From positions 23,394 through 87,393 of the forward strand of contig CAZFVV010000001.1 of the NCBI GenBank assembly GCA_964522165.1: a stretch of DNA of 64,000 nucleotides, in the 5' to 3' direction. This document shows positions 2 to 62,810 of the stretch, piece after piece (the first letter of the stretch is position 1; each line of letters begins with the position of its first letter). A program made the position numbers and the translations under genes. The notes under the pieces are model-generated. The model saw nothing but the letters and a program-made list of their open reading frames with translations. It searched no databases and was not told the DNA's origin. This DNA comes from an uncultured Calditrichaceae bacterium (GTDB lineage Bacteria; Calditrichota; Calditrichia; RBG-13-44-9; J075).

Positions 2-736
2 AATACCCGGGTTTTTCTGGAAGGAGCCTACCTGGGACACGACACCATGCGTACGACCCTGGCTGATAACGGGTGGCTGCCGATGGAACAGCCGTTTAAC
101 ACCGCTCCCTGGCATTACCCGGGAAACGAAGCGGTCGAAAGCCCACCGGAAGAGGTGGTCGATTGGGTTCTCCTGGCGTTGCGAACCTCTCCCGAAGGCC
201 CCAATGAAACCTTTCGCGCTGCTCTCCTCAAAAACGACGGAACGGTGGCGGATATAGGCGGGGCTGCCCCGGTCAGCTTTGTTGACCAGGCCCCGGGAGA
301 ATACTACATCGTGGTGTATCATCGCAATCACCTGACCATCATGAGCAGCTCTGCGGTGGCATTGGATGGCAATTCTCCCCTGTATGATTTTACAGCCGAC
401 CCGGCCATGGCGTATGGAACAGACGCTTTGAAAGAATTGGAACGGGAGATATATGGAATGTATTGCGGCGACGCGAACGCCGACGGGCGGGTAACCCTAG
501 AGGATAAAGAGCTTTCCTGGCGGCCGCAAAACGGGACCGCCTGGGAGTATGGTAAATACGGGGACCTTAACCTGGACGGCGGGATTGATGTAAAAGACCT
601 CAACCTGTGCTGGCGCCATAATATCGATCAAATCTCGCAGGTTCCCGAAGCAGCCGCCGCTGCAAAACCCGCCCGGCTTCCGGCGGCTCCCCGGCAAGGC
701 GAAGGCCGCGCCCGGGGCGGCAGACAGGAGCAGTGA
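2..736 (+). CDS. Dockerin-repeat protein, 3' part. The reading frame is open from the window edge, so the gene probably starts upstream.
   Basis: Frame is open from nt 2 with no stop before the first ATG at 47. Two dockerin type I-like Ca-binding repeats are present (GDANADGRVTLED and GDLNLDGGIDVKDL). Stop codon at 734-736. Confidence 0.55.
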   Translation, partial: NTRVFLEGAYLGHDTMRTTLADNGWLPMEQPFNTAPWHYPGNEAVESPPEEVVDWVLLALRTSPEGPNETFRAALLKNDGTVADIGGAAPVSFVDQAPGEYYIVVYHRNHLTIMSSSAVALDGNSPLYDFTADPAMAYGTDALKELEREIYGMYCGDANADGRVTLEDKELSWRPQNGTAWEYGKYGDLNLDGGIDVKDLNLCWRHNIDQISQVPEAAAAAKPARLPAAPRQGEGRARGGRQEQ

Positions 737-886
737 GCAGAAGCGGAAGCAGGGGCAGGAGCAGGTATAGATAGGAGTGCAAATTTTAATTTGCACTAAC
801 CACTCCCGCACTAACTCTGGCTGTCCCCGATCCTGCTCCTGCCCCTGCCGCCTGCAAAACTGAAGTTTTGCACTCCTGCCCCTGTT
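727..886. repeat. Composite intergenic repeat: GCAGG-rich tandem units, then the palindromes GTGCAAATTTTAATTTGCAC (777-796) and TGCAAAACTGAAGTTTTGCA (853-872), then a C-rich complement
   Basis: Perfect inverted repeats are readable in the sequence. The same motif recurs at 8815-8885, 21615-21665, 30482-30505, 54182-54532 and 57325-57385. Confidence 0.6.
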
Positions 887-5611: not shown

Positions 5612-5706
5612 ACTGCCAGTGATGCAGGCCGCTCCTTTAGAGCCGCTTTTTACGGACCCCACATAATCGGCCAACTTAGGAAAAGCTTCCGGCAGTCGGT
5701 TCGATC

Positions 5707-8833: not shown

Positions 8834-8885
8834 TTTTGCCACTCACGTTGCCTGCCGACAGTGCAAAGCTGAAGCTTTGCACTCC
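8815..8885. repeat. Palindromic intergenic repeat GAGTGCAAAACTTTAGTTTTGCCACTC plus AGTGCAAAGCTGAAGCTTTGCACTCC
   Basis: Two imperfect palindromes of the TGCAAAAC-NNN-GTTTTGCA family sit immediately after the ppdK stop. Confidence 0.6.
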
Positions 8886-9038
8886 GGCGTACTTCATTTT
8901 CGGTTAGCGGTTCGTTGATCTTTATCAATTCAATTGCCGGTGATGGGAATAACTTGCGTGGCCGGTTTTTCTGTCGCCAGCACCGATTAAACCAGGGAAG
9001 TTATCGGCACTTTTCATCAATCTAACAAGGAGAGCAAG

Positions 9039-9494: not shown

Positions 9495-12121
9495 AGGCCA
9501 GGATCGATACGGAATTCTTGCCCTTTGTCAGCAAGCCTGCGCGATACCTGGGAAACGAGTATAACGCCGTTCTGAAATCCCCCCGGCCGGGGGAACTGCG
9601 CGTGGCCCTGTGTTTTTCCGATTTGTACGAAGCGGGAATTCGCAATACTGCATTTGAGACGTTATACCACTGTTTGAACAGCCAGCCGAAAATTTCCGCG
9701 GAACGGGTTTATACTCCCTGGACCGACGCGGAAACGGTTCTGCACGCTGCCGCTATCCCACTGTTTTCGCTGGAATCCAAATTCCCCCTGAACAAGTTTG
9801 ATCTGCTCGTTTTCTACCTCCCGGATGTATTATCATTTACCAACCTCTTAACCATGTTGCATCTCGGCGGCGTTCCGCTTCGCTCCCGGGAGCGGAACGC
9901 CGGGGAACCGCCGGTGATTGGCGTCGGCCCCGCGCTCATCAATCCCGAACCGCCGGCTGTTTTCCTGGATGCGGCCGTTCCCGGGGACCCCGTAGCCGCC
10001 CTGTGGGAAATTGCCGCGGCGGCGGAACGCGCAAAGAGCGAGCGCCGAGACAGGCAGGAGTTCCTCCGGGCTATCGCGGCAATCCCCGGGGTGTATGTTC
10101 CTTCATTTTATGAGCCGTTGTATAACGATTTTAAGGAATTCCAGGGAATTACCCGCTTAGAGACTACCGCGCCGGAGCGTATCCGCAGCGCTGCCGCCGG
10201 GTCCGGCGCTAAGGATGAAAAAATCTGCCCGCTGAAACCGCTGCAGCCCCCGGGAGATTTGCCCAACAATCGCCCCGCGGCCGGCCAGTACGAACGCTTT
10301 ACGGGGGAAAATAACCGTTTCGCTCCCGGGCGGGTATTTCCCCCGGCGGTGCAGCAATCCGCGGAAAATTTGTACCGGGAATTGCAAAAATGCTTGCAGG
10401 GAAGCGGCGCGGAGCCGGCGGCGCGGTTATTATCCAATGATTCGCTTTTCCGGGAAACCGGTTGGGGATTCGCCAAGGAGAAATGCCTTGCAGAAGAGCA
10501 CCTGATAAGCGTCTCCGTTCCTTCTGCGGAATTAGCGCTGCGCCTGCCGGCAACCGGGGAGCTGGCCAACGCGCTGAAGGAGAATGGGTTCGCCCTCTCG
10601 CCCCTGGCTGGCAGCCCGCGCCTGCGCAGCGTGTTGAACCTGAACCTGCGCGACCAGGATATTTTAGACGCGGTCAAATTGGCGCTGGAGAGCGGCTGGC
10701 AAACCATCCGGCTGAATTTTATGCTCGGCCTGCCCGCCGAAAAGCCGGAAGATGCCGAGGCCATCGCCGCCCTGGCCAAAAAATGCCTGGATCTCGCCAA
10801 ATCCTATCCGGAAGCGCAGCTGCTGGTCTCGGCGCAGGGGTTTTCGCCGAAAGCTCATACGCCTTTCCAGTGGGAAAAACAGGAATCCGCGGCGCTGCTG
10901 GAAGAGAAATTCGAGCAGCTCCGGCAAAGCTTAGCCGACCTCCCGGTAAAAACCGTTTTTCAAAATCCCCGCCTGGCCAGCTTAGAAACCGCCCTCTCCC
11001 GGGGCGACCGCAGGATGGGCGAGGTGATCGAGAGCGCCTGGCAGCGGGGAGCGCGCCTCGACGCCTACAAGGAAACTTTTCGCGGGGAGGCCTGGGAGCG
11101 GGCGTTCCGGGAAAAGGAGATCGACTGGGAGGCCTGCCTCTCGCCCATCTCCGTTACCGTGGCGCTGCCCTGGGACCACATCGACCTGGGCGTCTCCAAA
11201 GCGGATCTCAAAGAAGAAAAGTTGCGGGCTTACCAGGGGCAGTTGCACCCCCGGAACAAGGATATGGTTTCGTTAGGCTACGGGGGATTGCCGCGAACGG
11301 AGTTCGAGGCGCTGCTGTGGAGCAATCTACCGGCGGAGCGGGGAAATAGCGCGGGGACGGTTTCCCGGCCCCGGCTCGAGGCGATGGCTGATTCGCAGGG
11401 GGAGGCCATCCAGTACGGCCGCCGGGAACGCAAGCGCCAGGCCCCAGTGCAGGTGATCAAGCGAAAAATCCGCATCCGCTATTCCAAATCCGGCCCGGCG
11501 CGGTTCCTTTCGCACCTGGACATCGTGCGGGTGTTCGACTTTTCCGCGCGGCTGGCGAAAATTCCCTTAGTATATTCACAAGGACTGCGCCCGAATCCCA
11601 AAATTTCGTACGCGCTTCCCCTAAGCCCCGGGGTCGCTTCCACTGCGGAGTACCTGGATATGGAAGTGGAAATCGGGCGGGAGACCGATATCCAGGGGCG
11701 TTTCAACCGGTTTTTGCCCGGCGGCATCCAGATTCTGCAATACCAGGGCATTTTCGCCAAAGTGCCGGCCCTGGCCGCGGTGATCAACCGCTCCACTTAT
11801 GAAACGCTGCTAACGGATTTCAGCCTGCCGGAAGAATGGGTTGCGGAGTGGCTGGCCCAACCGGAAGCGCCGGTTCGCCGGGAGACCAAGGAGGGGATGA
11901 AGGAGGTCGATATTCGCCCCTACGTACGCCAAATGAAGCGCACGCAGAGCAATTTAAATGTAACGATTGACATCATCGAAGGAAGAACTGCTAAAATAAC
12001 CGAAGTATTGGAATCGCTGCTTTCCCCCCGAGGGATCGAGTATCGAAAATTCCAGGTTCAGCGAACGGGACAATATATCGTCGAGAACGATTCGATTTTA
12101 ACACCTTTTGATATTATTTAG
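9485..12121 (+). CDS. Fusion protein: TIGR03960-like radical-SAM-family protein (N-terminal B12-binding-like domain) joined to a DUF2344/TIGR03936 'radical SAM-linked' domain. The canonical CX3CX2C motif is not detectable.
   Basis: N-terminus FVSKPARYLGNEYN...LRVALCFSDLYEAG matches TIGR03960. The C-terminal RIRYSKSGPARFLSHLDIVRVFDFSARLAKIPLVYSQGLRPNPKISYALPLSPGV matches DUF2344. The start overlaps the argR stop by 10 nt. Confidence 0.75.
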   Translation: MELKARIDTEFLPFVSKPARYLGNEYNAVLKSPRPGELRVALCFSDLYEAGIRNTAFETLYHCLNSQPKISAERVYTPWTDAETVLHAAAIPLFSLESKFPLNKFDLLVFYLPDVLSFTNLLTMLHLGGVPLRSRERNAGEPPVIGVGPALINPEPPAVFLDAAVPGDPVAALWEIAAAAERAKSERRDRQEFLRAIAAIPGVYVPSFYEPLYNDFKEFQGITRLETTAPERIRSAAAGSGAKDEKICPLKPLQPPGDLPNNRPAAGQYERFTGENNRFAPGRVFPPAVQQSAENLYRELQKCLQGSGAEPAARLLSNDSLFRETGWGFAKEKCLAEEHLISVSVPSAELALRLPATGELANALKENGFALSPLAGSPRLRSVLNLNLRDQDILDAVKLALESGWQTIRLNFMLGLPAEKPEDAEAIAALAKKCLDLAKSYPEAQLLVSAQGFSPKAHTPFQWEKQESAALLEEKFEQLRQSLADLPVKTVFQNPRLASLETALSRGDRRMGEVIESAWQRGARLDAYKETFRGEAWERAFREKEIDWEACLSPISVTVALPWDHIDLGVSKADLKEEKLRAYQGQLHPRNKDMVSLGYGGLPRTEFEALLWSNLPAERGNSAGTVSRPRLEAMADSQGEAIQYGRRERKRQAPVQVIKRKIRIRYSKSGPARFLSHLDIVRVFDFSARLAKIPLVYSQGLRPNPKISYALPLSPGVASTAEYLDMEVEIGRETDIQGRFNRFLPGGIQILQYQGIFAKVPALAAVINRSTYETLLTDFSLPEEWVAEWLAQPEAPVRRETKEGMKEVDIRPYVRQMKRTQSNLNVTIDIIEGRTAKITEVLESLLSPRGIEYRKFQVQRTGQYIVENDSILTPFDII

Positions 12122-12196
12122 TGTTCGAGTGTTATAGTGTTCTGGTGTTATAGTGCTTTAGTTTCTTCGCACTAAAACACTAAAACACCTGAACAC
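12121..12196. repeat. Long imperfect palindrome made of 8-nt periodic units: GTGTTCGA GTGTTATA GTGTTCTG ... AACACTAAAACACCTGAACAC
   Basis: Tandem GTGTTNNN units are mirrored by NNNAACAC units. Related copies lie at 13797-14052, 19648-19745, 35513-35595 and 62625-62660. Confidence 0.6.
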
Positions 12197-12261
12197 TTTT
12201 CCCCCGTTCTGTACCGTGATACAGCGACATCCGACGCCGCGGTTACCGCAATGAGGATACC

Positions 12262-13794
12262 ATGGCTATACGAAAAGAAATTGTTATCAATTCGACCAAT
12301 GAAGATACACGAATTGCGCTCCTGGAGGACGGGAAGTTAGTGGAGTTGTTTGTAGAACGCCCGGATAACGAACGCATGGTGGGGGACATTTATAAAGGGC
12401 GGGTAAGGAAAGTAGTGAAAGGAATGCAGGCGGCTTTTATAGATATCGGTTTTCAGCAGGACGGATTTCTGCACTTCTCGGACATGGGGAGTAACGTTAA
12501 CCAGCTCTTTGCCGATATCGAGGAAGAGGAAACCGAGGGAGGCGGCAAATCCCGCCCCGACATGGAACCTTCGGAGCTGCTGCGCAACGGGCAGGAAGTT
12601 TCCGTTCAAATCATCAAAGAACCGATCAGCAGCAAGGGTCCCCGGGTCACCACGGAATTGACCCTGCCGGGGCGCTTTTTGGTGCTGGTACCTAACCAGC
12701 ACCGGGTGGGGGTTTCCCGCAAGATCAGCACCAGCCAGGAACGGCGGCGGTTGCGCCAACTGGTGCGCAAAATGCTGCCGAAGAATTTCGGGTTGATCGT
12801 GCGCACCGTGGCGGAGGGAAAATCCGATGACGTGCTCAAGCAGGATTTGAACAGGCTGCTGAAAGAGTGGCAGGTCATCGAAGAAAAAATGCGCACCGCC
12901 AAACCGCCCATGCTGCTGTTCAAGGACTTAGGAATGGCCTCCAGCGTTATCCGCGACCTGTTTACCAGCGACGTTAAACGGGTGGTGGTAGATTCCCGGA
13001 AAATGCACCGCGAGATTACCCGCTACCTCAAGGAAGCCGGTTCGGAACTGCTGGAGCGGGTGGAATATTTCAAATCCAGGCGCCCGATTTTCGACGTCTT
13101 CAACGTCGAAGAAGAAATTCAAAAGAGCTTGCAGAAAAAAGTGTGGATGAAAAACGGCGGGTACGTCATTATCGAGCATACCGAGGCGCTTACCGTGGTG
13201 GACGTAAACAGCGGGCGGTATTTCGGAAGGAAAGACCACGAGAAGAATTCCCTGAAGATCAACCTGGAGGCGGCGCGGGAGATAGCCCGGCAATTGCGCC
13301 TGCGTGACGTCGGGGGATTGATCGTCATCGATTTCATCGACATGGAAGAAGAGGGAAACAAGCGCCGGTTATTTATGGAACTATTGAAAGAATTCAGCCG
13401 CGACCGCGCCGCCAGCAACATCCAGGAATTGAGCAAATTCAGCATCGTGGAAATGACCCGGGAGCGCATCCGCCCCAGCCTGATCTACAATATTACCGAG
13501 CCTTGCGCGGTGTGCGAAGGCACCGGGCTGGTGCCGACCCGGGGAACCGTGCTGGCGCACATCGAGCGCGCCCTTCGCCGCTACGTGGCTACCCGTTTGG
13601 ACCGGCGGGTGATTCTGCAAGTTCACCCGAGCATGGCGGAGTTCCTGAACAACAAGCCCTTCGGGCGGCGCTTCCGCTTGATGTGGAAATACTGGGTAAA
13701 GATCATTTTAGAACAAGATACAACCCTGGCGCCGCACCAGTTCCGGCTGCTGGTGAAGCGCAACCGCGAAGACGTGACCGGGAAATTCTCATAA
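12262..13794 (+). CDS. rng: Ribonuclease G (RNase E/G family)
   Basis: 510 aa. The S1 domain with GDIYKGRV...AAFIDIG, a DNase-I-like catalytic core and a C-terminal Zn-link CAVCEGTG are present. Confidence 0.88.
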   Translation: MAIRKEIVINSTNEDTRIALLEDGKLVELFVERPDNERMVGDIYKGRVRKVVKGMQAAFIDIGFQQDGFLHFSDMGSNVNQLFADIEEEETEGGGKSRPDMEPSELLRNGQEVSVQIIKEPISSKGPRVTTELTLPGRFLVLVPNQHRVGVSRKISTSQERRRLRQLVRKMLPKNFGLIVRTVAEGKSDDVLKQDLNRLLKEWQVIEEKMRTAKPPMLLFKDLGMASSVIRDLFTSDVKRVVVDSRKMHREITRYLKEAGSELLERVEYFKSRRPIFDVFNVEEEIQKSLQKKVWMKNGGYVIIEHTEALTVVDVNSGRYFGRKDHEKNSLKINLEAAREIARQLRLRDVGGLIVIDFIDMEEEGNKRRLFMELLKEFSRDRAASNIQELSKFSIVEMTRERIRPSLIYNITEPCAVCEGTGLVPTRGTVLAHIERALRRYVATRLDRRVILQVHPSMAEFLNNKPFGRRFRLMWKYWVKIILEQDTTLAPHQFRLLVKRNREDVTGKFS

Positions 13795-13796
13795 AA

Positions 13797-14052
13797 CTGT
13801 GTTCGGGTGTCATGGTGTTCGGGCGTTATAGTGTTCGAGTGTTTTAGTTTCGGGTTTTACGTTTTAAGTTTTGGTTCTCTATCATAATTTTACGTGAATT
13901 AAGGGTTGAAATATCTGATTGGATTCGGAGGGGACAGGGGGGAGGTCATAAACCGATTTTACGATAAGTTCTATACCGTGCTTCCAACCCTTAATTGGCA
14001 TTAAAACACCAAAACACTTGAACACTAAAACACTAAAACACCATAGCACCGC
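13797..14052. repeat. Nested composite repeat: a GTGTTNNN-type left arm (13797-13860), an inner element bounded by GAATTAAGGGTTG...CAACCCTTAATTGG (13888-14000) containing GGGGACAGGGGGGAGGTCATAA, and an NNNAACAC right arm (14000-14052)
   Basis: Read directly from the sequence. The inner element recurs at 62650-62800 attached to only a left arm. Confidence 0.6.
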
Positions 14053-14092
14053 AACACTTTTTATCAACCTTTTATCGAAGGAGATTTTTTTA

Positions 14093-15253
14093 ATGGATTA
14101 CTATCGTTTCGGAAGAGTGTTAGTGCCGGAAGGCGGCATATTCGATGATATTCAGAGCGCGCTCCAGTTTGCCGACCGGGTGGAGGCGGAGCCGCTTGCG
14201 GAGCAAATTCAGCAGCTGAGCTTCACCACCGACGAAGAGGGGCTTCTCACCGTGCTGATCAACAACAAACGCTATTTCATTACCCTCTCGGCCCTGAAGG
14301 AGTTGTGCAAACTGTTGAAAGTTCCGGCCAGTTACATCAACAAGTTCCCGGGGCGGAGCCTGGTGCTGGAAAATTTGAATAATAATCCCTATCTGAAAGA
14401 GAACGCCGATCCCATCAAACTGGTGATCTGGAACCATGAAGAGCAGCCGGTCATTGCCGGGGTGCTGCCGGGGAACGACCCGGGCATGTCATTGAAAGCG
14501 TATTTCGAGCTGCTGCACGATGAGAAAGTGTTCGAGCGGGAGAGCACCCAGCTCGACCAGATCGTCATCACCGGGGAAGAAGCGGCGCTCTACTTTTATT
14601 TGACCGATGAGATCACCCGGGAGGGTTTCGGGTTCAACCTCGGCTACGCTTTCCACTATTCGCCTACCCTCTCCGCGGATTTTGTGGTGCAGCCGTTTTG
14701 CAAAATGTCCGTGGTGGCGCCCAGTGGGGAGCCGTTCGATTTCGATTTCGAGAGCACGAAGAAACTGCACGCGGCCAAACGCAAAAAAGAGGATTTTTTG
14801 CAGAAAACCCTGGAGCTGAGCCAGACCTACCAGGGGCAGGACCTGGGCATGTACGCAGAAGAAGTGCTCAAATTCGGCACCGTGTCGCGCAACCTCGACA
14901 CCGTTAAATACGCCCTGCTGAAATATTTCAAATCCCGCGCCCTTTCCATCTACAATTACGGCGGGGTAAAGGTGGACGGCAACGAGGTGGCCCAGGAAGT
15001 GATCCCGGAGTACAAACAGTTCTACAGCGCCAACCAGGAGGACCTCAAGCAGATGGAAACCTACGCGGCCAACAACTTGCCGGTAAGTTTCTACCTGCCG
15101 GTCTATTTGAACCGCATTTTCACCTTCCAGGCCAATATCGAAAACCCCAATTTTCTGATTCGCTACCGCAAAGCCATCGGGGCGACCCTGAACAAGGTTT
15201 TAGATGAAGTGGGAGACGTGATGGTGGACGTGGAGAGAGACGAGGATAAATAA
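14093..15253 (+). CDS. Hypothetical protein (386 aa). The start is taken at MDYYRFGR with an AAGGAG RBS; the upstream ATG at 14018 lies inside the repeat.
   Basis: Long ORF with a good RBS (GAAGGAGATTTTTTTAATG). No recognisable motif. Confidence 0.65.
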   Translation: MDYYRFGRVLVPEGGIFDDIQSALQFADRVEAEPLAEQIQQLSFTTDEEGLLTVLINNKRYFITLSALKELCKLLKVPASYINKFPGRSLVLENLNNNPYLKENADPIKLVIWNHEEQPVIAGVLPGNDPGMSLKAYFELLHDEKVFERESTQLDQIVITGEEAALYFYLTDEITREGFGFNLGYAFHYSPTLSADFVVQPFCKMSVVAPSGEPFDFDFESTKKLHAAKRKKEDFLQKTLELSQTYQGQDLGMYAEEVLKFGTVSRNLDTVKYALLKYFKSRALSIYNYGGVKVDGNEVAQEVIPEYKQFYSANQEDLKQMETYAANNLPVSFYLPVYLNRIFTFQANIENPNFLIRYRKAIGATLNKVLDEVGDVMVDVERDEDK

Positions 15254-17810: not shown

Positions 17811-17874
17811 TAGTTTCGAGTTTTGAGTTTTGAGTTTTGAGTTTTGGGTTTTGGGTTTTGGGTTTTGGGTTGGG
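17811..17874. repeat. Tandem 8-nt repeat (GTTTTGAG x3 then GTTTTGGG x4) immediately upstream of the DUF2461 gene
   Basis: Direct tandem array readable in the sequence. Confidence 0.75.
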
Positions 17875-18606: not shown

Positions 18607-18621
18607 ACTCCTTTCAGAAGT

Positions 18622-18712
18622 GAGACGTGATGCGTGAAGCGTAATGCATAAAAAACGGAATACGCAATACGGAATACTTATTACGAGTTACGCATCACGT
18701 TTCACGCTTCGG
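18622..18712. repeat. Hairpin repeat of the CGTGAAGCG/CGTAATGC family
   Basis: GTGATGCGTGAAGCGTAATGCAT...ACGAGTTACGCATCACGTTTCACGCTTC forms an inverted repeat. A related copy is at 49143-49240. Confidence 0.55.
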
Positions 18713-19647: not shown

Positions 19648-19745
19648 GCGTGTTCATGTGTTCGAGTGTTATAGTGTTCTTGTGTTTTAGTATTTGGGTA
19701 GGATTCGCAGGTGCTAAAACACTAAAACACTTGAACACCATCGCA
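19648..19745. repeat. GTGTTNNN/NNNAACAC 8-nt periodic palindrome
   Basis: GTGTTCATGTGTTCGAGTGTTATAGTGTTCTTGTGTTTTAG...CTAAAACACTAAAACACTTGAACAC. Confidence 0.6.
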
Positions 19746-20336
19746 CTATTCCAACGCCGCTTTCAATTGATACATCCCCTCGAATACCGGGCGCATGGCC
19801 TCTAATTTGGTATCATCCAAAATCCGCTGGGAGATGCGCTCTAATAGCATCCGGCTGTTGCCGATCAAAATGTAGGCAAAGGGAGGCAAATTGGCGACTA
19901 ACTTCTCGAAAATTGCCAGATCGACCTTTTTTAAGTCCGCGGAGCTTCTCGCTTCCAGCAAATATTGCCCGTTCAGGATCGAAAGGGTGCGCTCTTTCTG
20001 ATCTTCGGCCACTTCCTTTTTCCCCAGCCAATCGGTTGACTTGATAAAAAAGTTGAGCCGGGATGCGGCTTCCATGGAAACGGCGATATAGTAGCGGCGC
20101 TCCCCTTCAGTTTTCTCGGTGCTGATCGACACCACGATATCCTGCCCTTTGAACCTGCCGGCATAGCGGGGCCGCACCGCAAACCCGCCCCGGATTACCT
20201 GCCCGCCATAGGCGTCTTCCAAATCCAAAAAGTTCTGATGAATGGCGTCAAACTGGGCTTTGCGCAGGAAAAGCAGCATCAGGAGCACTAAAAAAATGGC
20301 CGTCATGGCCAGGGCGATGGCCCATAAAATCGTCAC
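19746..20336 (-). CDS. Hypothetical membrane-anchored protein (single N-terminal TM helix)
   Basis: 196 aa ORF. N-terminus ILWAIALAMTAIFLVLLMLLFL is hydrophobic. Confidence 0.6.
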   Translation of the reverse strand: MTILWAIALAMTAIFLVLLMLLFLRKAQFDAIHQNFLDLEDAYGGQVIRGGFAVRPRYAGRFKGQDIVVSISTEKTEGERRYYIAVSMEAASRLNFFIKSTDWLGKKEVAEDQKERTLSILNGQYLLEARSSADLKKVDLAIFEKLVANLPPFAYILIGNSRMLLERISQRILDDTKLEAMRPVFEGMYQLKAALE

Positions 20337-27261: not shown

Positions 27262-27354
27262 AAGGCGCATGGCGCAGAGCGCGGAGGGCAGAGCGCAAAA
27301 GGTAATGCGTACGGGGCGTGAAAAGCTTTCTCTATGCGCCATGCGCCATGCGCC
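27262..27354. repeat. GCGCATGGCGCAGAGCGC-family hairpin repeat
   Basis: GGCGCATGGCGCAGAGCGCGGAGGGCAGAGCGC ... TGCGCCATGCGCCATGCGCC; copies also at 29581-29752 and 32370-32485. Confidence 0.6.
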
Positions 27355-28554
27355 TCAACGGTTTTCATACTTCCGCGTTTCCGCCTCCAGCCAATAATCG
27401 GCGGCGATTTCCGTGGCCTTGACCACCCAGAAAATGCCTAACCCGATGGCGAACACCACGTCGAACTGCTTATAAAGGATATTTTGCAGCATTTCGTAGC
27501 ACAAGTGCCCCTGGATATTCAGCGCCATCTCGATGATCACCAGCCCGGTGATCAAAAAGGAGGCTTGCTCCTTGAGCGTGGATAGATATTGATAACGGGC
27601 GTTCAGGTAAATGTGCTGGAACACGTGCCCGGGGAACCGCTTTTCCCAGCGCAATATGGAGAGGGTAGAAATGCCCTCCGTGGCGCCGGGCAAGTAATTG
27701 TTGTTCAATCCCTTGACGATGGCGGTTTCTACGTACCCCTTGCGGCTTTCCGCCACTAAGAAGGTGTAAAATTTCTGGGCGTAGGTGATCAATAATCCGT
27801 TGGAAATAACGCCCAACAGCACCAGGAAGAAAAATGTATCGGTATTGAACCCGGTGCGGAAGGAATACGCGATCACGTACGCGGGGGAGAACAATACCAG
27901 GTAAGCGATGCCTTTCCCCGCGGCTTTGGCCAGCAGGCCGGCGGAACGGGCCAGGTCGCGGAGAATTTGCGGAAGGTCTTTTTGCCGGGGAATTCCGGCC
28001 AGGCAGGCCGCTAATTCCGCCAGGTAAGACGTACGGTTTTGCTTCATGCGCACGAAGCGCAGAACCGCCAGGGTTTGCACGCCGTAGTAGGTCAGCAGCA
28101 TCACCACCAGGTAGGCGAGGATGAATTTGAAATACATTCCGGTAAGCTGCCAGAGCTTGCCGCCGCTCAGCCCCTGGTACAATCCCGCTTTCCGGGCGAT
28201 TTCCTTCGCACGCCCGGCGCGATAGCGGTCGATGGCCCGCAGCAGGGAATCCGCTCGCCCGGGATGATCGGGATAGTACACATTCAGGGTCTCGCGCAGG
28301 AGCGCCCGGTGCAGGGGGTTGGTGATATCGAGGGACTCCAGCCTCAGCAGGGCCTCGATCTCCGCGTTTCCGGCGGGATTCCCAGGTTTATTCTCCGCTT
28401 CAACGCTGAAGATCAGCGCCAGAAAAATAAGCGAGACGAAAGCGATGCTGAGGAGGTGCTCGGTTAATTTGCGTTTCATGGAAAAGCCATTTGCTTGCGC
28501 GGCAATAGTGGTCATTTGCCCCTGCCGGGGCGTCAATTGCGCTGCGCGCGTCAT
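27355..28554 (-). CDS. ABC transporter permease (DppB/YejB-like)
   Basis: Polytopic membrane ORF with a C-terminal permease core. The start is ambiguous between 28554, 28515 and 28479. Confidence 0.7.
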   Translation of the reverse strand: MTRAAQLTPRQGQMTTIAAQANGFSMKRKLTEHLLSIAFVSLIFLALIFSVEAENKPGNPAGNAEIEALLRLESLDITNPLHRALLRETLNVYYPDHPGRADSLLRAIDRYRAGRAKEIARKAGLYQGLSGGKLWQLTGMYFKFILAYLVVMLLTYYGVQTLAVLRFVRMKQNRTSYLAELAACLAGIPRQKDLPQILRDLARSAGLLAKAAGKGIAYLVLFSPAYVIAYSFRTGFNTDTFFFLVLLGVISNGLLITYAQKFYTFLVAESRKGYVETAIVKGLNNNYLPGATEGISTLSILRWEKRFPGHVFQHIYLNARYQYLSTLKEQASFLITGLVIIEMALNIQGHLCYEMLQNILYKQFDVVFAIGLGIFWVVKATEIAADYWLEAETRKYENR

Positions 28555-28735: not shown

Positions 28736-29750
28736 CCTTCCCGCGCACTTCGATGGCGCCCTGGCGCCGGGAGACCCGGTAGGGCGCGCCGAGCAATGCG
28801 TTCTCCAAATGATCCACGAGTTGCCCGGCGCTTTCCGGGAAGACCTGGGGAGAGGGCGCGCCTTCCAAAACACAGTGAACCCGGTTCGCCTCTACCTCTA
28901 CGATCCAGCGGGGCGGGGTGCGGCGCTGGCCGGTTTGCGCGTTGAGATACGCAAAAAGCTCCGCCAGCACCCGGTTTGTTTCCGCAATCCGGCTTTCGAC
29001 CCTTTGCACGATTTCGGGGGGAATGCTCTCCGCGACCGCCGCAGTTCTGCGGTAGATGCGCCAGGAGCGCTCCCGGGATTCATTCGCCAGGTTCGACCAG
29101 CCATAGCGCGGTTCTCCGCCCGGATTTTTGACATACACCCGGCCGCGGTAAGCAAATAAGCGCAGCAGCCGCTCCCCCTTTTCCAGGTAGAATCGCTGCG
29201 CGCGCGGGGTGGATTCGGGCGCAGGATTTTGCGTGATAAACAACGCCTGGTTCGCCAACACCTCTACCGTATCCCGCAGCAGGGTGCAATTATCGAAAAC
29301 CCGGTGGAAACCGATGCGATCCGCGTGCATAAGCTGCCGGCGCTCGTCGGCGAGGAGGAAATAGAGCGAATGGTCGGCCTGCACCTTTATACAGGGAGTG
29401 AATCCGTCGCTCAAATACCCATCGGCGTCTATGATTTGCAAGGGCTGATAGGGTGCCAGGGGGGTTTCCTGCCGGGCATCGATGCGCTGCTGGAATTTGT
29501 CATAAATGACCAGCTCGCGGGGATTTTCAACGGTCAGGAAGTCTGCGGTCTGGGCGGGGAGAAGGCCGCTAAGCGCAAAGAGCAGGGCGCAGAGCGCAGA
29601 GCGCAGAGTGCATGGCGCATAGCGCATGGAGCAAGGAGCAGAACGCAGAGTGCATGGTGCAAAGGGGGAATCGGAGAGCCGGCAGCACGTACGCCCCACG
29701 CTCTGCGCCATGCGCCATACGCTCTGCGTCATGCGCTTTGCTCCCCTCAC
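28731..29750 (-). CDS. Hypothetical secreted protein. The first roughly 40 codons, including a plausible signal peptide (LCALLFALSGLLPAQTADF), are encoded by the GCGCATGG repeat.
   Basis: Long ORF. A believable start is the ATG near 29624 (MRYAPCTLRSALCALLFAL...). Confidence 0.5.
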   Translation of the reverse strand: MRGAKRMTQSVWRMAQSVGRTCCRLSDSPFAPCTLRSAPCSMRYAPCTLRSALCALLFALSGLLPAQTADFLTVENPRELVIYDKFQQRIDARQETPLAPYQPLQIIDADGYLSDGFTPCIKVQADHSLYFLLADERRQLMHADRIGFHRVFDNCTLLRDTVEVLANQALFITQNPAPESTPRAQRFYLEKGERLLRLFAYRGRVYVKNPGGEPRYGWSNLANESRERSWRIYRRTAAVAESIPPEIVQRVESRIAETNRVLAELFAYLNAQTGQRRTPPRWIVEVEANRVHCVLEGAPSPQVFPESAGQLVDHLENALLGAPYRVSRRQGAIEVRGKE

Positions 29751-29752
29751 TT
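29581..29752. repeat. GCGCATGGCGCAGAGCGC-family repeat, largest copy
   Basis: GCGCAGAGCGCAGAGCGCAGAGTGCATGGCGCATAGCGCATGG ... CGCTCTGCGCCATGCGCCATACGCTCTGCGTCATGCGC. Confidence 0.6.
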
Positions 29753-32339: not shown

Positions 32340-32369
32340 ATTTTTCCTTTCTATCGCTCAGTTTTTTTT

Positions 32370-32485
32370 CGCATGGCGCATGGCGCAGAGTGCATAGCGC
32401 ATAGTGTAGAATTTTCATACGCCACAAGCCCTGCCCCATGCGCTCTGCTGTATGCTCTATGCGCCACGCGCTTTGCGCTATGCTA
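32370..32485. repeat. GCGCATGGCGCAGAG-family hairpin repeat
   Basis: GCATGGCGCATGGCGCAGAGTGCATAGCGCATAG ... CATGCGCTCTGCTGTATGCTCTATGCGCCACGCGC. Confidence 0.6.
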
Positions 32486-35084: not shown

Positions 35085-35165
35085 GGGTGGGGAGCGTGGG
35101 GCGGGAGGGGTAGGCAGTGGCAATAGGCAGTAGGCAATTACTCCTGCTAACTGCTCCTGCGCCTT
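35085..35165. repeat. Hairpin repeat GGTAGGCAGTGGCAATAGGCAGTAGGCAAT ... CTCCTGCTAACTGCTCCTGC
   Basis: 8-nt periodic units; read directly. Confidence 0.45.
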
Positions 35166-35512: not shown

Positions 35513-35595
35513 AGTGTTATGGTGTTTTGGTGTTATAGTGTTTGGGTAATTGAACATCTGTACACCGGAACACCATCGCACTAAAATATTACATC
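35513..35595. repeat. GTGTTNNN/NNNAACAC periodic palindrome
   Basis: GTGTTATGGTGTTTTGGTGTTATAGTGTTTGG ... ACACCGGAACACCATCGCAC. Confidence 0.55.
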
Positions 35596-41264: not shown

Positions 41265-44200
41265 TCATCGCATCAACAGCATTTTGCGGGTCTCCACAAA
41301 ACCCTGCCCTGGGCCGCTCGAAGGGGCCGCCGTGAGCCGGTAGAAATACACTCCTGAAGCCGCACCGCTGCCATCCCACTGTACGCTGTGGTAGCCCGCT
41401 GCTTTGCGCTCGTCAACTAACAGGGCTACCCCCTGGCCGAGGATGTTGAAGATTTCCAGTTTCACCTGCGCTGTTTTAGGCAGGCCGAAGCGGATGGTGG
41501 TGGCCGGGTTGAAGGGGTTGGGGTAGTTCTCGACTGTAAAGCTCTGCGGCACGTTTTCCATGGCCGGGACAGAACCTTGGTCGGATAGTTTTAGATAAGG
41601 CAACAAGTCCGTAAATGTACCCGCCGCAGCCATGGCGCTGAAGCTGAGAGAAACCGGCTTGTCGGGAAGCGACGGGGCGTTGCCCAGTATCTTGAACTTC
41701 AGGTTCAAGATGTTCACCACTCCAACGGCGCCGTGCGGATAGGCGTGGGCGGCCGCCAGCCGACCTTCTTTCACTTTCAAGTCATTGATCATTGGTGCGG
41801 CAAAACCTTCGGTGGTGCCGCTGCTGTAACCGGTGAGTTGCAGCAGAGAGGGGTCCCAACTCAGGGCGACGGTATAGCTGCCCAGCTTTTCGCCGGTTTT
41901 GGTCATGTCGATCATCACCGGAACTTCTAGTACCTGCCCGGTAAGGTTCGGAGCCGCGTAAGCCTGTACTTCATTTCCTTTCGCTGGCGGGGCAACGGTT
42001 GACTTACCGGGAGCAACCGGCGCGGGCAGGCATACCACCGTTCCAATCGGGAAGGGTACCGGGAGTCCGACTTCCCAGGTCAGGGTCACCAGTGCATCGG
42101 TAGAGTTGGTCAAACCGTCATCGTTCACGTCGCCAAATCCGATGGCAATACGATCCAGAAACGGCTGGGGAAGCGGTAAGCCAGCGTCGTAGGATAGGAG
42201 CACTAGGGCGTCGATGGAGTTGGTTGCGCCGTCACCGGTAACGTCGCCCAGCACGCCGCTCAGTTGGTCAGCACCGCAAACCAGCATATGCGCAGTGACC
42301 ACATCGGAGGGATTATTCGGATCGTTGCCGCTCACCATAATGTCAGTGGAGTAATCGCCTGGCAGGGTGTCGGCGTTGAAGGTTACCGTCACATCCATGC
42401 TGCCGCCTGCGGGAACCGTGCCGGCCGTAGAGGCTACCTCCAACCACTCAACCATCGGAACCACGCTGATGCTCCAGATCAGCTCGCCTCCCCCGGAATT
42501 GAAGATGGTGATGGTCTCATCCCCGGTTTGGCCCTGCGAGAGAGCAACATTCAGCATTTGCGGGCTCACCACCATCACCCCAGCGGACTGTAACGCGCTG
42601 ATCCCGGCAATTCCGGCATGGGGCAAATTACCTATGCGGATAAACGCTCCCCCGGCATATACCGTGGAACCGCTCACCGCCAGGGCATCTACCCCGGGGT
42701 AGGCATTGGGATCCCAGGCGGTAGCGCTGCCGGTAGCGGCATTCAGCGCGGCAATGTAGTTGCGCTCCTGCCCGCCGATGCTGCCAAAAGATCCCCCGGC
42801 ATAGACCGTAGAGCCGCTCACCGCCAGGGCAGATACCCAGTTGTTGGCATTGGGATTCCAGGCCGTGGCGCTGCCGGTCGTGGCATCCAGCGCGGCAATG
42901 TAGTTTCGCGCCTGCCCGCCAATGCTGGTAAACCCTCCCCCGGCATAGACCGTGGAGCCGCTCACCGCCAGGGTCACTACTTCGCCATTGGCATCAGGAT
43001 TCCAGGCGGTGGCGCTGCCAGTAGCGGCATCCAGCGCAGCGATGTAGTCTCGCGGCTGCCCGCCGATGTGGTGAAAGTTTCCCCCGGTATAGACCGTGGA
43101 GCCGCTCACCGCCAGGGCAAGAACCGGACCGAAGATGGAGTTGGGATTCCAGGCGGTTGCGCTGCCGGTAGCGGAATCCAGTGCCGCAATGCGGCTGCGC
43201 TGCTGCCCGCCAATATTGAAAAAGTCTCCCCCGGCATAGACTGTGGAGCCGCTCACCGCCAGAGCGGTTACTAGTTCATCGGCATCTGGATTCCAGGCGG
43301 TGACGCTGCCGCTAACGGCATCCAGCGCGGCAATGCGGTTGCGCTCCTGCCCGCCAATGCTGGTAAACCCTCCCCCGGCATAGACCGTGGAGCCACTCAC
43401 CGCCAGGGCCAATACCCCGATATTGGCATTGGGATTCCAGGCGGTGGCGCTGCCAGTAGCGGCATCTAACGCGGCAATGCGGTTACGTGCCTGCCCGTCG
43501 ATGCTGGTAAATTCTCCCCCGGCATAGACCGTGGAGCCGCTCAGCGCCAGGGCCCATACCACGCTGTTGGCATTGGGATTCCAGGGGGTAGCGCTGCCGG
43601 TAGCAGCATCCAGCGCGGCAATGCGGTTTCGCGGCTGCCCGCCAATATTAGTAAAATACCCCCCGGCATAGGCCGTGGAGCTGCTTACTGCCAGGGCACT
43701 TACAGGGTTGTTGGCATTAGGATTCCAGGGGGTAGCGCTGCCGGTAGCGGCATCCAGCGCGGTGATGTAGTTTCGCGCTTGCCCCCCGATGCTGGTAAAA
43801 AATCCCCCGGCATAGATGGTGGAGCCGCTCACTGCCAGGGCATTTACAGGGTTGTTGGCATTAGGATTCCAGGGGGTAGCGCTGCCGCTAACAGCATCCA
43901 GCGCGGTGATGTAGTTTCGCGGCTGCCCGCCGATGCTGGTAAACCCTCCCCCGGCATAGACCGTGGAGCCGCTCACCACCAGGGTCCATACTCCGTCGTT
44001 AGCATCGGGATTCCAGGTTGTGGCGCTGCCGGTAGCGGCATCCAGTGCGGCAATGTAGTTTCGCGCCTGCCCGCCAATGCTGATAAAGGCTCCCCCGGCA
44101 TAGATGGTGGAGCCGCTCACCGCAAGGGTTGCTACCGGACCGTTGGCATCAGGATCCCAGGGAGAGAGGGTATGGTCCGCCTGAATATGGGCGATGTTAT

Positions 44201-44528
44201 TGCGCGGTACCCCGTTTACATGGGTAAATATTCCTCCGATATACCAACCGCCCATCCCGTCTGGAACCACCGCATTCACAGTTCCTAGCACCTTCGGCAG
44301 AGAAATATCTGGCGCGCCGGTAACAACGTCGATGGCCGCCCCGCCGCCCGTGGCGGGACCCACTTCGGTAAAGTCTCCCCCAATGTAGATGGTGCTTCCC
44401 GAAACCACCAATGCTCTCACCGGAGCATTGGTGATCCACAAATTGGGGTCAATGGTCTGCGCCGCTCCCGGCAGGCTGCCCAGGAGCAATGCGCCCAGCG
44501 TGAACCAGAGCCGGATTATGCGTTTCAT
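41265..44528 (-). CDS. Large secreted protein (1087 aa): about 17 tandem delta-60-type repeats, two dockerin-like modules and a T9SS C-terminal sorting domain
   Basis: Repeated SGSTVYAGGxFTSIGGQxRNYIAALDAATGSATxWNPNAN blocks. Dockerin-like modules GDVTGDGATNSIDALVLLSYDAG and GDVNDDGLTNSTDAL. C-terminal YPNPFNPATTIRFGLP...ILGQGVALL...SGVYFYRL. Confidence 0.8.
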   Translation of the reverse strand: MKRIIRLWFTLGALLLGSLPGAAQTIDPNLWITNAPVRALVVSGSTIYIGGDFTEVGPATGGGAAIDVVTGAPDISLPKVLGTVNAVVPDGMGGWYIGGIFTHVNGVPRNNIAHIQADHTLSPWDPDANGPVATLAVSGSTIYAGGAFISIGGQARNYIAALDAATGSATTWNPDANDGVWTLVVSGSTVYAGGGFTSIGGQPRNYITALDAVSGSATPWNPNANNPVNALAVSGSTIYAGGFFTSIGGQARNYITALDAATGSATPWNPNANNPVSALAVSSSTAYAGGYFTNIGGQPRNRIAALDAATGSATPWNPNANSVVWALALSGSTVYAGGEFTSIDGQARNRIAALDAATGSATAWNPNANIGVLALAVSGSTVYAGGGFTSIGGQERNRIAALDAVSGSVTAWNPDADELVTALAVSGSTVYAGGDFFNIGGQQRSRIAALDSATGSATAWNPNSIFGPVLALAVSGSTVYTGGNFHHIGGQPRDYIAALDAATGSATAWNPDANGEVVTLAVSGSTVYAGGGFTSIGGQARNYIAALDATTGSATAWNPNANNWVSALAVSGSTVYAGGSFGSIGGQERNYIAALNAATGSATAWDPNAYPGVDALAVSGSTVYAGGAFIRIGNLPHAGIAGISALQSAGVMVVSPQMLNVALSQGQTGDETITIFNSGGGELIWSISVVPMVEWLEVASTAGTVPAGGSMDVTVTFNADTLPGDYSTDIMVSGNDPNNPSDVVTAHMLVCGADQLSGVLGDVTGDGATNSIDALVLLSYDAGLPLPQPFLDRIAIGFGDVNDDGLTNSTDALVTLTWEVGLPVPFPIGTVVCLPAPVAPGKSTVAPPAKGNEVQAYAAPNLTGQVLEVPVMIDMTKTGEKLGSYTVALSWDPSLLQLTGYSSGTTEGFAAPMINDLKVKEGRLAAAHAYPHGAVGVVNILNLKFKILGNAPSLPDKPVSLSFSAMAAAGTFTDLLPYLKLSDQGSVPAMENVPQSFTVENYPNPFNPATTIRFGLPKTAQVKLEIFNILGQGVALLVDERKAAGYHSVQWDGSGAASGVYFYRLTAAPSSGPGQGFVETRKMLLMR

Positions 44529-44941: not shown

Positions 44942-45331
44942 ATGAAACTTCAAGAACATATCGATTATTGGCTGAAATCAGCCGCCCATGACCTGGAGAG
45001 TGCTGAGACGCTGTTTGAGCACGGACGCTACGATTGGTGTCTGTTCCTGGGGCACCTGGTAATTGAAAAAATGCTGAAAGCCTTTTTTGTGCGAGACACT
45101 CAGAATCAAACCCCACCCTTTACCCACAATCTTTCCATGATAGCCGCCCACACCAGCCTGAACCTCACATTACAACAAGAAAATTTACTGCTTGAGCTAA
45201 ACCAGTTTAACCTGCGAACCCGTTATCCAGACTATAAGTTAGAATTCTACCAAAAGTGTACCCGGCAGTTTGCCGAACCATATTTTGCCAAAATCAAGGA
45301 GCTATACCAATGGCTGTTGCAACAGATATAG
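44942..45331 (+). CDS. HEPN domain protein (PF05168 type)
   Basis: WLKSAAHDLESAETLFEHGRYDWCLFLGHLVIEKMLKAF...THNLSMI...RTRYPDY matches the HEPN layout of HEPN/MNT pairs. Confidence 0.78.
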   Translation: MKLQEHIDYWLKSAAHDLESAETLFEHGRYDWCLFLGHLVIEKMLKAFFVRDTQNQTPPFTHNLSMIAAHTSLNLTLQQENLLLELNQFNLRTRYPDYKLEFYQKCTRQFAEPYFAKIKELYQWLLQQI

Positions 45332-47815: not shown

Positions 47816-47816
47816 C

Positions 47817-54181: not shown

Positions 54182-54532
54182 GAGTGCAAAACTTCAGTTT
54201 TGCAGGGGCAGGAGCAGTGGGCAGGGACAAGAGCAGGAGGCAGGGGCAGGGGCGGCAGGAGCAGGAGGCAGGGGCAGGAGCAGGAGGCAGGGGCAGGGGC
54301 AGGAGTAGGGGCAGGGGCAGGAGTAGGGGCAGGAGTAGGGGCAGGGGCAGGAGTAGGGGCAGGGGCAGGAGTAGGGGCAGGAGCAGGGGCAGGAGCAGGG
54401 GCAGCCGCGTTAGCGGTGGTTTACCCCTTTTCCAAAGGAAGCACTTTGTGCCGGGGCTTCGCCATAGGCAATATTTGTGCTCCTTCCCTGCCACCTGCCT
54501 CCGCTCCTGCCCCTGCCTACTGCTCCCTTTTC
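54182..54532. repeat. Palindrome GAGTGCAAAACTTCAGTTTTGCA, then about 200 bp of GGGGCAGGAG(C/T)A tandem repeats (54205-54410), then a complementary C-rich copy (54478-54530)
   Basis: Tandem 12-mers are readable. Many GGGG runs lie on the + strand between the activator and kinase genes. Confidence 0.7.
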
Positions 54533-62624: not shown

Positions 62625-62810
62625 ATGCGGTGTTCAGGTGTTCGTGTGTTTAAGTGAATTAAGGGTTGGAGCCATAGTATTGAATTCGGAGAGAACTCAG
62701 GGTTTAACATCCCCCCTGTCCCCCCCTTCAAAGGGGGGAACTACCCATTCGCCCTTGACTTTCCCCCCTTTGAAGGGGGGACAGGGGGGATGTCATAAGC
62801 CGCTCTTAAA
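62625..62810. repeat. GTGTTNNN left arm, then an AATTAAGGGTTGG inner element containing CCCCCCTTCAAAGGGGGG / CCCCCCTTTGAAGGGGGG hairpins and GACAGGGGGGATGTCATAAGCC
   Basis: Shares both the arm and the inner element with 13797-14052. Confidence 0.6.

Follow-up and report, generated by a model that had tools for sequence, protein, structure and literature searches.

GTGTT-octamer palindromes of an uncultured Calditrichaceae bacterium are one family of intergenic periodic hairpins

What are the mirrored arrays of eight-nucleotide units that recur between the genes of an uncultured Calditrichaceae bacterium, how are they made and copied, and would they act as DNA or as RNA? We addressed these questions in a 64,000-nt stretch of DNA (positions 23,394 to 87,393 of contig CAZFVV010000001.1, assembly GCA_964522165.1; hereafter the window), in which an earlier note had pointed out long palindromes built of tandem GTGTT-containing octamers. 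We conclude that these palindromes are one family of a widespread and barely described class of intergenic periodic hairpins, formed by mirrored arrays of 6-9 nt units. As to their nature, we favour, with a confidence that falls just short of even, the reading that they are slippage-prone palindromic repeats resembling the repetitive extragenic palindromic (REP) elements, which would form stem-loops at cistron boundaries and whose RNA-level role is suggested by their geometry.

A scan of the window for the pattern GTGTTNNNGTGTT, allowing at most one mismatch, returned 33 matches, compared with a mean of 1.7 and a maximum of 6 in dinucleotide shuffles of the same DNA. Nearly all of them cluster at five loci (12121-12196, 13799-14057, 19650-19747, 35514-35573 and 62630-62650), a density of five copies in 64 kb. 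Four of these loci, referred to below as hairpins A to D, are two-armed, an array of GTGTTNNN being followed by a loop and then by an array of NNNAACAC. The units keep an 8-nt register and consist of RGTGTT plus two to three free bases (consensus RGTGTTNN). The elements are 70-260 nt long and run from AGTGTT to AACACCATCGCACT; the terminal motif AGTGCGATGGTGTT / AACACCATCGCACT is common to the copies, and several share both their left end, GTGYSATGGTGTT, and their right end, AACACCATMGCAC. Of the six palindromic GTGTT loci listed in the earlier note, four are thus two-armed and one is a lone left arm, whereas the sixth, a supposedly looser copy at 35085-35165, is in fact a GTAGGCA-type heptamer array beside a G-rich stretch. 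Its second locus is also real but does not stop at 14052, as the right arm extends to 14057.

When folded as single strands, the 77-105 nt copies gave long imperfect hairpins with minimum free energies (MFE) of -30.8 to -36.9 kcal/mol. RNA folding had been proposed as a check, and all four two-armed copies do fold as long hairpins, with z scores of -5.9 to -8.3 against shuffles; hairpin A reached an MFE of -30.8 (z -5.9) and the whole composite element at hairpin B an MFE of -91.3 kcal/mol (z -7.5). Every element that was folded, the other array families included, did so far better than shuffled sequence. The description of the copies as intergenic, 8-nt phased, imperfect palindromes is borne out.

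The placement of these hairpins relative to genes is equally regular. All 35 two-armed GTGTT hairpins that could be placed are intergenic; 25 lie in co-directional, 6 in convergent and 4 in divergent spacers, against a background of 64, 18 and 18% at the same loci. The median distance to the stop codon of the incoming gene is ~4 nt, and a TAG stop often overlaps the first unit. This is the case for hairpin A, whose first unit is overlapped by the TAG of a radical-SAM gene (12119-12121), with the start of the RNase G gene 65 nt downstream. In the window the hairpins mostly occupy co-directional spacers, starting 0-8 nt past the stop, and a Shine-Dalgarno sequence and start codon follow 17-65 nt later. 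The claim that every copy lies right after a stop codon was accurate for those at 12121, 13799, 19650 and 62630 (0-8 nt from the upstream stop) but not for hairpin D at 35513. That hairpin lies within a divergent spacer of 739 nt, 96 nt upstream from a start codon, without a preceding stop. The flanking genes are ordinary ones (PPDK, ArgR, a radical-SAM protein, RNase G, Era, PlsX, cargo proteins of the type IX secretion system (T9SS), mla genes, aconitase and others), and a Pfam scan of ~45 window proteins revealed no link of the hairpins to particular gene functions. An association with Uma2 nucleases, of which the window has two, was considered and dropped, since no enrichment was seen near GTGTT arrays in 1.1 Mb of other loci.

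The window DNA was also found in independent assemblies from the Joint Genome Institute (JGI) and Logan, which rules out an assembly artefact of one data set. Homologs of its RNase G assign the window to the Calditrichota, the best named ones coming from a 'Calditrichaeota bacterium' (79% identity) and Caldithrix abyssi (56%). Three Logan contigs (L002-L004) end at 14000-14003, the start of the right arm of hairpin B, and another ends within the element at 62654; such breaks of short-read assemblies at the arms are the expected behaviour of dispersed repeats.

At least six families of periodic arrays coexist in the window, GTGTT being one of them; Tandem Repeats Finder and an inverted-repeat search revealed this architecture with other units as well. 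Taking for each spacer longer than ~80 nt the best 40-nt stretch at a 6-8 nt period, we found that 15 of the 32 window spacers have a periodicity exceeding the maximum of 46 coding control windows. The arrays in these 15 spacers are mostly mirrored into hairpins and belong to at least five unit families besides GTGTT (Table 1). One of them, the (GCAGGR)n array, is wholly translated in a spurious open reading frame (ORF) of 133 amino acids at 54155-54556, and periodic arrays of this kind will inflate gene calls in these genomes. The unusually long divergent spacer at 34931-35669 holds, apart from the GTAGGCA array and hairpin D, ~300 nt of structured-looking sequence that has no Rfam match at E<=1.

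Table 1. Periodic arrays, hairpins and inner-element copies in the window (positions are those of the window)
Feature	Position	Description
GTGTT hairpin A	12119..12198	left arm of ~6 units at 12121-12166, decayed in its inner units; right arm of 3-4 units at 12170-12196
GTGTT hairpin B, left arm	13799..13851	6-7 units; starts 4 nt past RNase G stop
Inner element, first copy	13894..13998	between hairpin B arms; 13-nt terminal inverted repeats around GGGGACAGGGGGGAGGTCATAA core
GTGTT hairpin B, right arm	14000..14057	7 NNNAACAC units, ends with AACACCATAGCACCGCAACAC terminal motif, then TTTTT
GTGTT hairpin C	19650..19747	between stop of 196-aa gene (19746, minus) and era start (19632, minus)
GTGTT hairpin D	35513..35583	4 + 3-4 units; right end AACACCATCGCACT; fold z -8.3
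Lone GTGTT left arm	62630..62653	3 units; 8 nt past heparinase-like gene stop
Inner element, second copy	62654..62803	beside lone left arm; without closing inverted repeat
Hexamer hairpin	725..855	(CAGGAG)n ... (CCTGCC)n, G-rich arm first
One-armed heptamer array	17812..17871	(GAGTTTT/GGGTTTT) x8.6
Heptamer hairpin	18620..18705	(CGTGATG)n ... mirror, G-rich arm first
GCGCAGA-family heptamer hairpin	27262..27356	occupies whole stop-to-start spacer
GCGCAGA-family heptamer hairpin	29556..29752	abuts Uma2 gene stop
GCGCAKR-family heptamer hairpin	32366..32483	occupies whole stop-to-start spacer
GTAGGCA-type heptamer array	35085..35165	partial mirror; adjoins G-rich stretch
Hexamer hairpin	54202..54526	left arm (GCAGGR) x34, right arm (CCCTGC) x5
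Further one-armed arrays	47771-47817 and 60276-60371	

To place the family among other genomes, we scanned one genome per species of the GTDB for four exact GTGTT units. At least 119 genome stretches match, where we estimate from the size of the collection that about one would be expected by chance; as the number of stretches is a lower bound, the proportions by taxon are indicative. Among the matches listed, ~60% come from Bacteroidota, notably Saprospiraceae, Lewinellaceae, Cytophagales and Cyclobacteriaceae, and the remainder from Balneolaceae/Rhodothermales, Calditrichota, Ignavibacteriae and scattered others. A mirrored partner array within 300 nt, our criterion for a two-armed locus, was present at 30 of 118 loci among the matches listed, nearly all of them in Bacteroidota, Balneolaceae/Rhodothermales or Calditrichota; two cultured strains, Gracilimonas mengyeensis DSM 21985 and Ohtaekwangia kribbensis, carry such loci. 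The earlier note had itself set the case of a single local duplication, confined to this window, against its proposal; with the same architecture present in many other genomes, that case does not hold.

The pentamer is constant across these genomes, and the spacer triplet is array-specific, being TTG or TTA in many Saprospiraceae and GAT, ACG or GAA elsewhere. Away from the match that had triggered their selection, the listed loci contain 202 further arrays of 5-9 nt units in 825 kb, heptamers being the commonest. GTGTT recurs in 12 of the 48 additional octamer arrays (25%), while our own estimate of the expectation is ~1.6%. A metagenome scan with three GTGTT units followed by a CATNGCAC end yielded 16 loci, all of other organisms and none from that of the window; several have common arms, GTGTTACAGTGCGATGGTGTTACGGTGTTAT ... 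ATAACACCGTAACACNNNAACACCATCGCAC, around unrelated loops. A phage origin was rejected. None of 120 viral loci with a four-unit GTGTT array has a mirrored partner, which indicates that mirroring is not an automatic property of such arrays; a gapped two-arm pattern hit one viral contig and the reversed pattern none.

Comparison with related DNA revealed that the arrays change by whole units and that the two arms do so independently. On a conspecific contig whose flanks are 98-99.7% identical, the left (GCAGGR)n arm is shorter by 15 units (90 nt), and neither the right arm nor the loop differs. The radical-SAM/RNase G spacer of a close relative (L124, RNase G 96% identical) has a GTGTT hairpin that is 60% identical and 24 nt (three units) longer, between flanks of 88% identity. 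In the next spacer of L124, arms and inner element are replaced by a GCGGATT-type unit family, and relatives with an RNase G of 81% and 78% identity have a GTGTT hairpin at neither site. Within the window, the paralogous arms of A (12121) and C (19650) are 85-86% identical and keep the same order of variable triplets around unrelated loops. Arms within a genome are thus more alike than orthologous arms in sister species, and sites turn over quickly between close relatives. When the window is compared with a JGI contig of 99.8% identity (L001), its GTGTT hairpins differ at a single nucleotide, C/T at 13824, which turns the variant core GCGTT into the canonical GTGTT.

A second repeat lies between the arms of hairpin B, where the left arm continues as decayed GTTTT-type units to 13893. 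This inner element has the terminal inverted repeats GAATTAAGGGTTG (13896-13908) and CAACCCTTAATTG (13985-13997), with the GGGGACAGGGGGGAGGTCATAA core at 13930-13951. Matching repeats confirm, as the earlier note had described, that it recurs at 62654-62803 with a left arm only: GAATTAAGGGTTG is present at 13896 and 62656 and, inverted, at 13985, while GGGGACAGGGGGGA is present at 13930 and 62777 and, inverted, at 62710. In the second copy, 87 additional nt duplicate the G-rich core of that copy in inverted orientation (arms 62707-62740 and 62760-62793). Downstream of the two copies lie genes without any relationship to each other (E 0.56); hence the inner element is a dispersed repeat, and we rejected the idea that it is a common leader of paralogous genes. 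No Rfam family matches it. As for the proposed insertion of one repeat into another, the nested arrangement is real, and insertion is at most a candidate mechanism, since no empty site was found; the closest relative, L124, has a different periodic hairpin there.

A consistent property of the hairpins is their polarity. Among the matches listed, the GTGTT array is the 5' arm in 30 loci and in none is the order reversed, or 45 to 0 when arm pairs are counted; the rule holds on both strands, as reverse complementation leaves the outline of the element as it was. The sole viral two-arm match has the same GTGTT-first polarity. For other unit families, ~14 hairpins in window, genome and metagenome loci have the G-rich arm first and 2 have it second. 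We found that heptamer arrays of Nostoc, of the short tandemly repeated repetitive (STRR) type, are often mirrored into hairpins as in the window, and that in 500 kb of plasmids of Nostoc punctiforme (pNPUN01) and Nostoc PCC 7120 (pCC7120alpha; loci L269-L278) the G-rich arm comes first by 9:1; pNPUN01 alone gives 6 to 0 under strict criteria. An example is (GAGTAAT)n...(ATTACTC)n at pNPUN01 44801-44883. Perfect non-periodic inverted repeats in the same DNA gave ratios of 125:83, 25:28 and 76:104, with no comparable bias. The polarity is therefore specific to periodic hairpins and not a feature of ordinary inverted repeats.

Two possible causes of this rule did not hold up. Avoidance of an exposed C-rich, Rho-loading 5' arm is weakened by the 9:1 ratio in Nostoc, since cyanobacteria, to our knowledge, lack Rho, and the rule in such Rho-less organisms points instead to a cause at the DNA level. 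Likewise, the supply of stop codons by a GT-rich arm fails as a general cause for units that contain no T (GCAGGG and GCGCAGA, for example). A GT-rich composition is favoured by RecA and by Chi-type signals. A DNA-level cause may thus lie in the GT-rich 3' tails that a G-first palindrome would expose after a central break, or in GT-rich nascent strands that fold back and self-prime. One could go further and postulate, for Bacteroidota, Calditrichota, Rhodothermota and Cyanobacteria, an unrecognised but conserved DNA-level process that builds or selectively preserves short-unit palindromes of obligate polarity, in which the G-rich strand would run 5'->3' to the dyad centre, GTGTT being its preferred substrate or recognition core in the Fibrobacterota-Chlorobiota-Bacteroidota (FCB) group; we regard this as improbable. 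Such a process might take the form of repeat synthesis on the 3' ends of breaks, of fold-back self-priming of GT-rich nascent strands, or of selective survival, in which palindromes would persist only if their 3' tails after cleavage are GT-rich and load RecA well.

Considering known element types, the hairpins are distinct from CRISPR arrays and from classical REP sequences and their mosaics, the bacterial interspersed mosaic elements (BIME), as had been claimed. The period is 8 nt with inverted arms, unique spacers of 25-40 nt and cas genes are lacking in the window, and elements of 70-260 nt made of 8-nt units have neither the GTAG/CGTC head of REP sequences nor, among the ~45 window proteins scanned against Pfam, a REP-associated tyrosine transposase (RAYT); the same scan found no other transposase and no reverse transcriptase near the window copies. 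The covariance models of Rfam 15 gave no window match at the gathering score, the only one being a chance hairpin match at 13806-14050 (E 0.62); no real match at E<=1 was seen on 13780-14100 or 34900-35700, and no tRNA or tmRNA in the window. We also rejected intrinsic (Rho-independent) terminators, because a consensus scan did not raise the hairpins above shuffled sequence and most of them have no T-run. Furthermore, after hairpin C, as after the heptamer hairpins at 27262 and 32366, comes a Shine-Dalgarno sequence with a start codon and not a T-run.

In the reading that we favour, arrays would be resized by slipped-strand mispairing or unequal recombination, and arms would be homogenised or re-seeded among sites by copying, through gene conversion between arrays or some unknown mobilisation. 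Their centres would be revised by breakage and repair and by further small palindromes that insert there, which would explain why the inner element is nested. A transcript from either strand would then carry an imperfect stem-loop of 25-45 bp at a cistron boundary, which could stabilise the upstream message, serve as a processing site for a double-strand RNase or attenuate read-through, as REP and BIME sequences do in enterobacteria; a periodic hairpin of this kind would not be a gene-specific regulator.

Several observations weigh against this reading. The RNA-level role, as stabiliser, processing site or attenuator, is inferred from geometry and from the analogy with REP/BIME sequences and with phage intercistronic RNase III sites. 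The G-rich-arm-first rule is left unexplained. The variable bases of the two arms are complementary in register at 0.574, compared with 0.577 for shuffled units, so that a compensatory, position-wise mirroring of these bases can be rejected, and the five-base core is far better conserved than the spacer bases; taken together, a conserved core and non-complementary variable bases are more in line with some factor that recognises the core than with selection for a hairpin as such. The transcribed strand folds better than the antisense strand in only 6 of 10 cases, which speaks against RNA selection on the transcribed strand. A T-run follows only A (TTTT) and B (TTTTT), and most copies are accordingly not classical intrinsic terminators. 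Finally, we found no target-site duplications at 12121, 13799, 19650 and 35513, and neither a mobilising enzyme nor an empty site. A related test concerned the course of pairing along the stem: pairing and core quality drop toward the loop (0.69 at the apex and 0.88 in the outer units, to which the delimitation of stems may contribute), the opposite of the trend expected from fold-back growth with the youngest and best-paired units at the loop, a model that we therefore rejected.

Among the alternatives, the hairpins could be functionless by-products of DNA replication and repair, grown by slippage and mirrored by fold-back, template switching or break repair, with one polarity produced or surviving. 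This would suit their unit-number polymorphism and fast turnover, the many unit families in one genome, the inverted duplication within the 62654-62803 element and the absence of mirroring in the viral arrays. It would also suit the polarity of GTGTT hairpins, of the other families and of Nostoc as opposed to unbiased ordinary inverted repeats, all the more as the rule extends to Rho-less cyanobacteria and so points to DNA; and cores that decay toward the loop, around unique centres, are what one expects if centres are repeatedly broken and revised. Neutral slippage, however, should treat all eight positions alike, whereas the pentamer is kept and the spacer is free, and the common order of variable triplets in paralogous arms implies that they were copied from site to site and did not arise independently. 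That the hairpins abut stop codons so tightly moreover suggests constraint or targeting, and no enzyme or pathway has been identified; on balance, we consider a by-product origin rather unlikely. The same conserved core and freely variable three positions could instead mark each unit as one binding site of a sequence-specific protein that acts cooperatively on DNA or single-stranded RNA, the arms then being inverted clusters of sites and not a hairpin. Proteins that bind contiguous tandem sites of 7-8 bp have precedents in MetJ with its metboxes and in the omega protein with its heptads. Recurrence of one pentamer at one spacing across phyla and its excess among additional octamer arrays point in this direction, as do arms that are conserved around loops of variable length and sequence and whose variable bases are not position-wise complementary beyond composition; the paired octamers of Geobacter metallireducens have themselves been proposed as sites for IHF/HU or a global regulator (PMC2700814). 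Within 64 kb, nevertheless, no fewer than six unrelated families of units have this architecture, and each would call for a protein of its own. Close relatives differ by the gain, loss and swapping of sites, a single species is polymorphic in unit number, the hairpins show no link to particular gene functions, and they are somewhat depleted, not enriched, in the divergent spacers where promoters lie. We therefore hold the binding-site explanation to be unlikely.

The least supported of the readings is that of non-autonomous transposons akin to miniature inverted-repeat transposable elements (MITEs), with arms that would be terminal inverted repeats of reiterated transposase-binding units and a centre that would be cargo. 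The resemblance is real in that the arms are inverted and the inner element has 13-nt terminal inverted repeats; dispersed copies have a common terminal motif, similarity within a genome exceeds that between orthologous sites, and centres vary between conserved arms. In a Saprospiraceae metagenome-assembled genome (L072 1965-2110, JAEUUR010000417.1), two GTGTT arms of 13 units each enclose a C-terminal piece of an IS256/mutator-type transposase (…IYTTNPVEALRRVMRKVTKTKGAWKGDKALLKQLYLTLQ), which is truncated at the right arm. ISGme8 and ISGme9 lie at a fixed distance from arrays of Geobacter metallireducens (Aklujkar et al. 2009, PMC2700814). Such associations are, however, equally explained by insertion sequences that target hairpins. 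Insertion sequences are in fact said, by Tobes and Pareja in 2006, to target REP elements. In addition, the four window copies lack target-site duplications, no transposase lies between or beside the arms in the window (~45 proteins scanned), and no full-length autonomous partner was found in ~1.1 Mb of other loci. Arms that differ in unit number and change independently, and one architecture built from many unrelated units, are further difficulties, and we judge a transposon nature to be highly unlikely.

Whatever their origin, periodic hairpins occupy nearly half of the window spacers, and the architecture recurs in many Bacteroidota, Rhodothermota and cyanobacterial genomes; the elements break short-read assemblies, create spurious ORFs and sit at cistron boundaries. 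If they do act as RNA stem-loops, they would constitute a major unannotated layer of operon punctuation in phyla in which little RNA biology has been worked out. If the polarity instead reflects how palindromes are made or survive, it would offer a testable handle on palindrome metabolism in bacteria and, at the DNA level, would bear on the long-standing question of the origin of STRR-type repeats. Experiments are feasible in the cultured carriers G. mengyeensis DSM 21985, O. kribbensis and N. punctiforme.

The window has further features that stand apart from the GTGTT hairpins. A separate REP-like family of small hairpins, GGAGTGCAAAACTTNAGTTTTGCAC, occurs at 8814-8888, 54172-54203 and 57321-57389, often as inverted pairs; L124 has three copies of it (2450-2580) at the orthologous PPDK-ArgR spacer. 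Between 21665 and 34930, on the minus strand, lie genes for an ABC-type ATPase, a prokaryotic YEATS protein, a DprA-like protein, DUF5615, Uma2 and several large proteins without a Pfam match; GCGCAGA heptamer hairpins stand between the genes of this run, which resembles a defence or mobile island. At 44942..45331 there is a HEPN gene. The region 51261-52606 is a strain-variable island when compared with positions 1035-2907 of the conspecific JGI contig L267, which encodes an EcoO109I-like restriction enzyme and an N6/N4 methyltransferase where the window instead has a PD-(D/E)XK (PDDEXK_4) nuclease gene. The block 2001-6000, with a G+C content of 36-41% against ~55% elsewhere and with two proteins bearing T9SS C-terminal sorting domains, may have been acquired horizontally. 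A 144-nt tandem repeat (x10.4, 81% identity) at 42634-44128 is coding and has no relation to the intergenic arrays: it specifies a 48-residue repeat of ORF 41265..44528 (minus), whose T9SS-sorted product of 1087 aa has DUF5122 beta-propeller, Ig-like, dockerin and Por_Secre_tail domains.

How new, then, are these elements? The earlier note had presented them as unfamiliar, and their separation from CRISPR and classical REP/BIME sequences stands; to call them unlike anything known is overstated, since analogues among the cyanobacterial STRR heptamers and the G. metallireducens sites have been published. In a literature that we covered incompletely, we came across no account of GTGTT-octamer hairpins, of how they are distributed in the FCB group or of a polarity rule.

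With the REP, BIME and REPIN (REP doublets forming hairpins) sequences of enterobacteria and pseudomonads, the GTGTT copies have in common that they are extragenic (35/35), multi-copy, imperfect palindromes that fold as hairpins. Both kinds of element lie within operons and at gene ends, often a few bases from stop codons, are hot spots for nested insertions and probably have the same kinds of RNA-level effects. REP sequences differ, however, in being single imperfect palindromes of 20-40 nt with a GTAG/CGTC head and a RAYT transposase, without tandem periodicity or variation in unit number.

The TAACTGA heptamer repeats of Beggiatoaceae, cyanobacteria and some Bacteroidetes are similar in their short tandem units near coding boundaries, their odd spread over cyanobacteria and Bacteroidetes, their one-unit steps between close relatives and their effect on assemblies. 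Those repeats occur in 169 direct sets and 1 indirect set (MacGregor 2015, PMC4679880) and sit just upstream of start codons, for which a role in translation was proposed (PMC4679880), whereas the elements of the window are inverted pairs abutting stops. Long simple sequence repeats with units of 5-11 nt (Mrazek 2007, as summarised in PMC4679880) are tandem, intergenic and longer than chance, and the GTGTT arrays have all of these properties. Together with the STRRs, this class resembles ours in its intergenic tandem units of 6-9 nt, the many families per genome, the variation in unit number and the patchy spread that includes Bacteroidota. In the strict sense, an STRR is a heptamer of heterocystous cyanobacteria; the GTGTT unit has 8 nt and its host belongs to the Calditrichota, while families co-resident in the window are heptameric. 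The GTGTT arrays differ further in having a fixed pentamer with free spacer bases and not an identical repeated unit, and in their FCB-group hosts; the published definition of STRRs, as far as we found, includes neither a mirrored two-arm architecture nor a polarity rule. According to a preprint, Nostoc heptamer repeats affect the expression of recF/recO. With regard to nesting, the inner element of hairpin B may have a counterpart in the small dispersed repeats that Elhai reportedly noted inside heptamer arrays in 2008.

Another close match by description is G. metallireducens, in which sets of four tandem GTTGCTYN octamers form 24 pairs, the partners of a pair being on opposite strands and variably spaced (Aklujkar et al. 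2009, PMC2700814). Three classes with the units GTTGCTYN, TCTCCGTS[Y] and MTYCTGA are given in its supplementary figures, where they are read as IHF/HU or global regulator sites; the paired sites number tens of copies per genome, occupy spacers including those inside operons (proBA) and are absent from the sister species (PMC2700814). They differ from ours in unit sequence (RGTGTTNN here) and phylum, and no polarity rule, turnover or spread across phyla was described for them. Compared by description, however, both systems consist of multi-copy pairs of three to five tandem, degenerate units of 7-9 nt, placed on opposite strands at variable distance.

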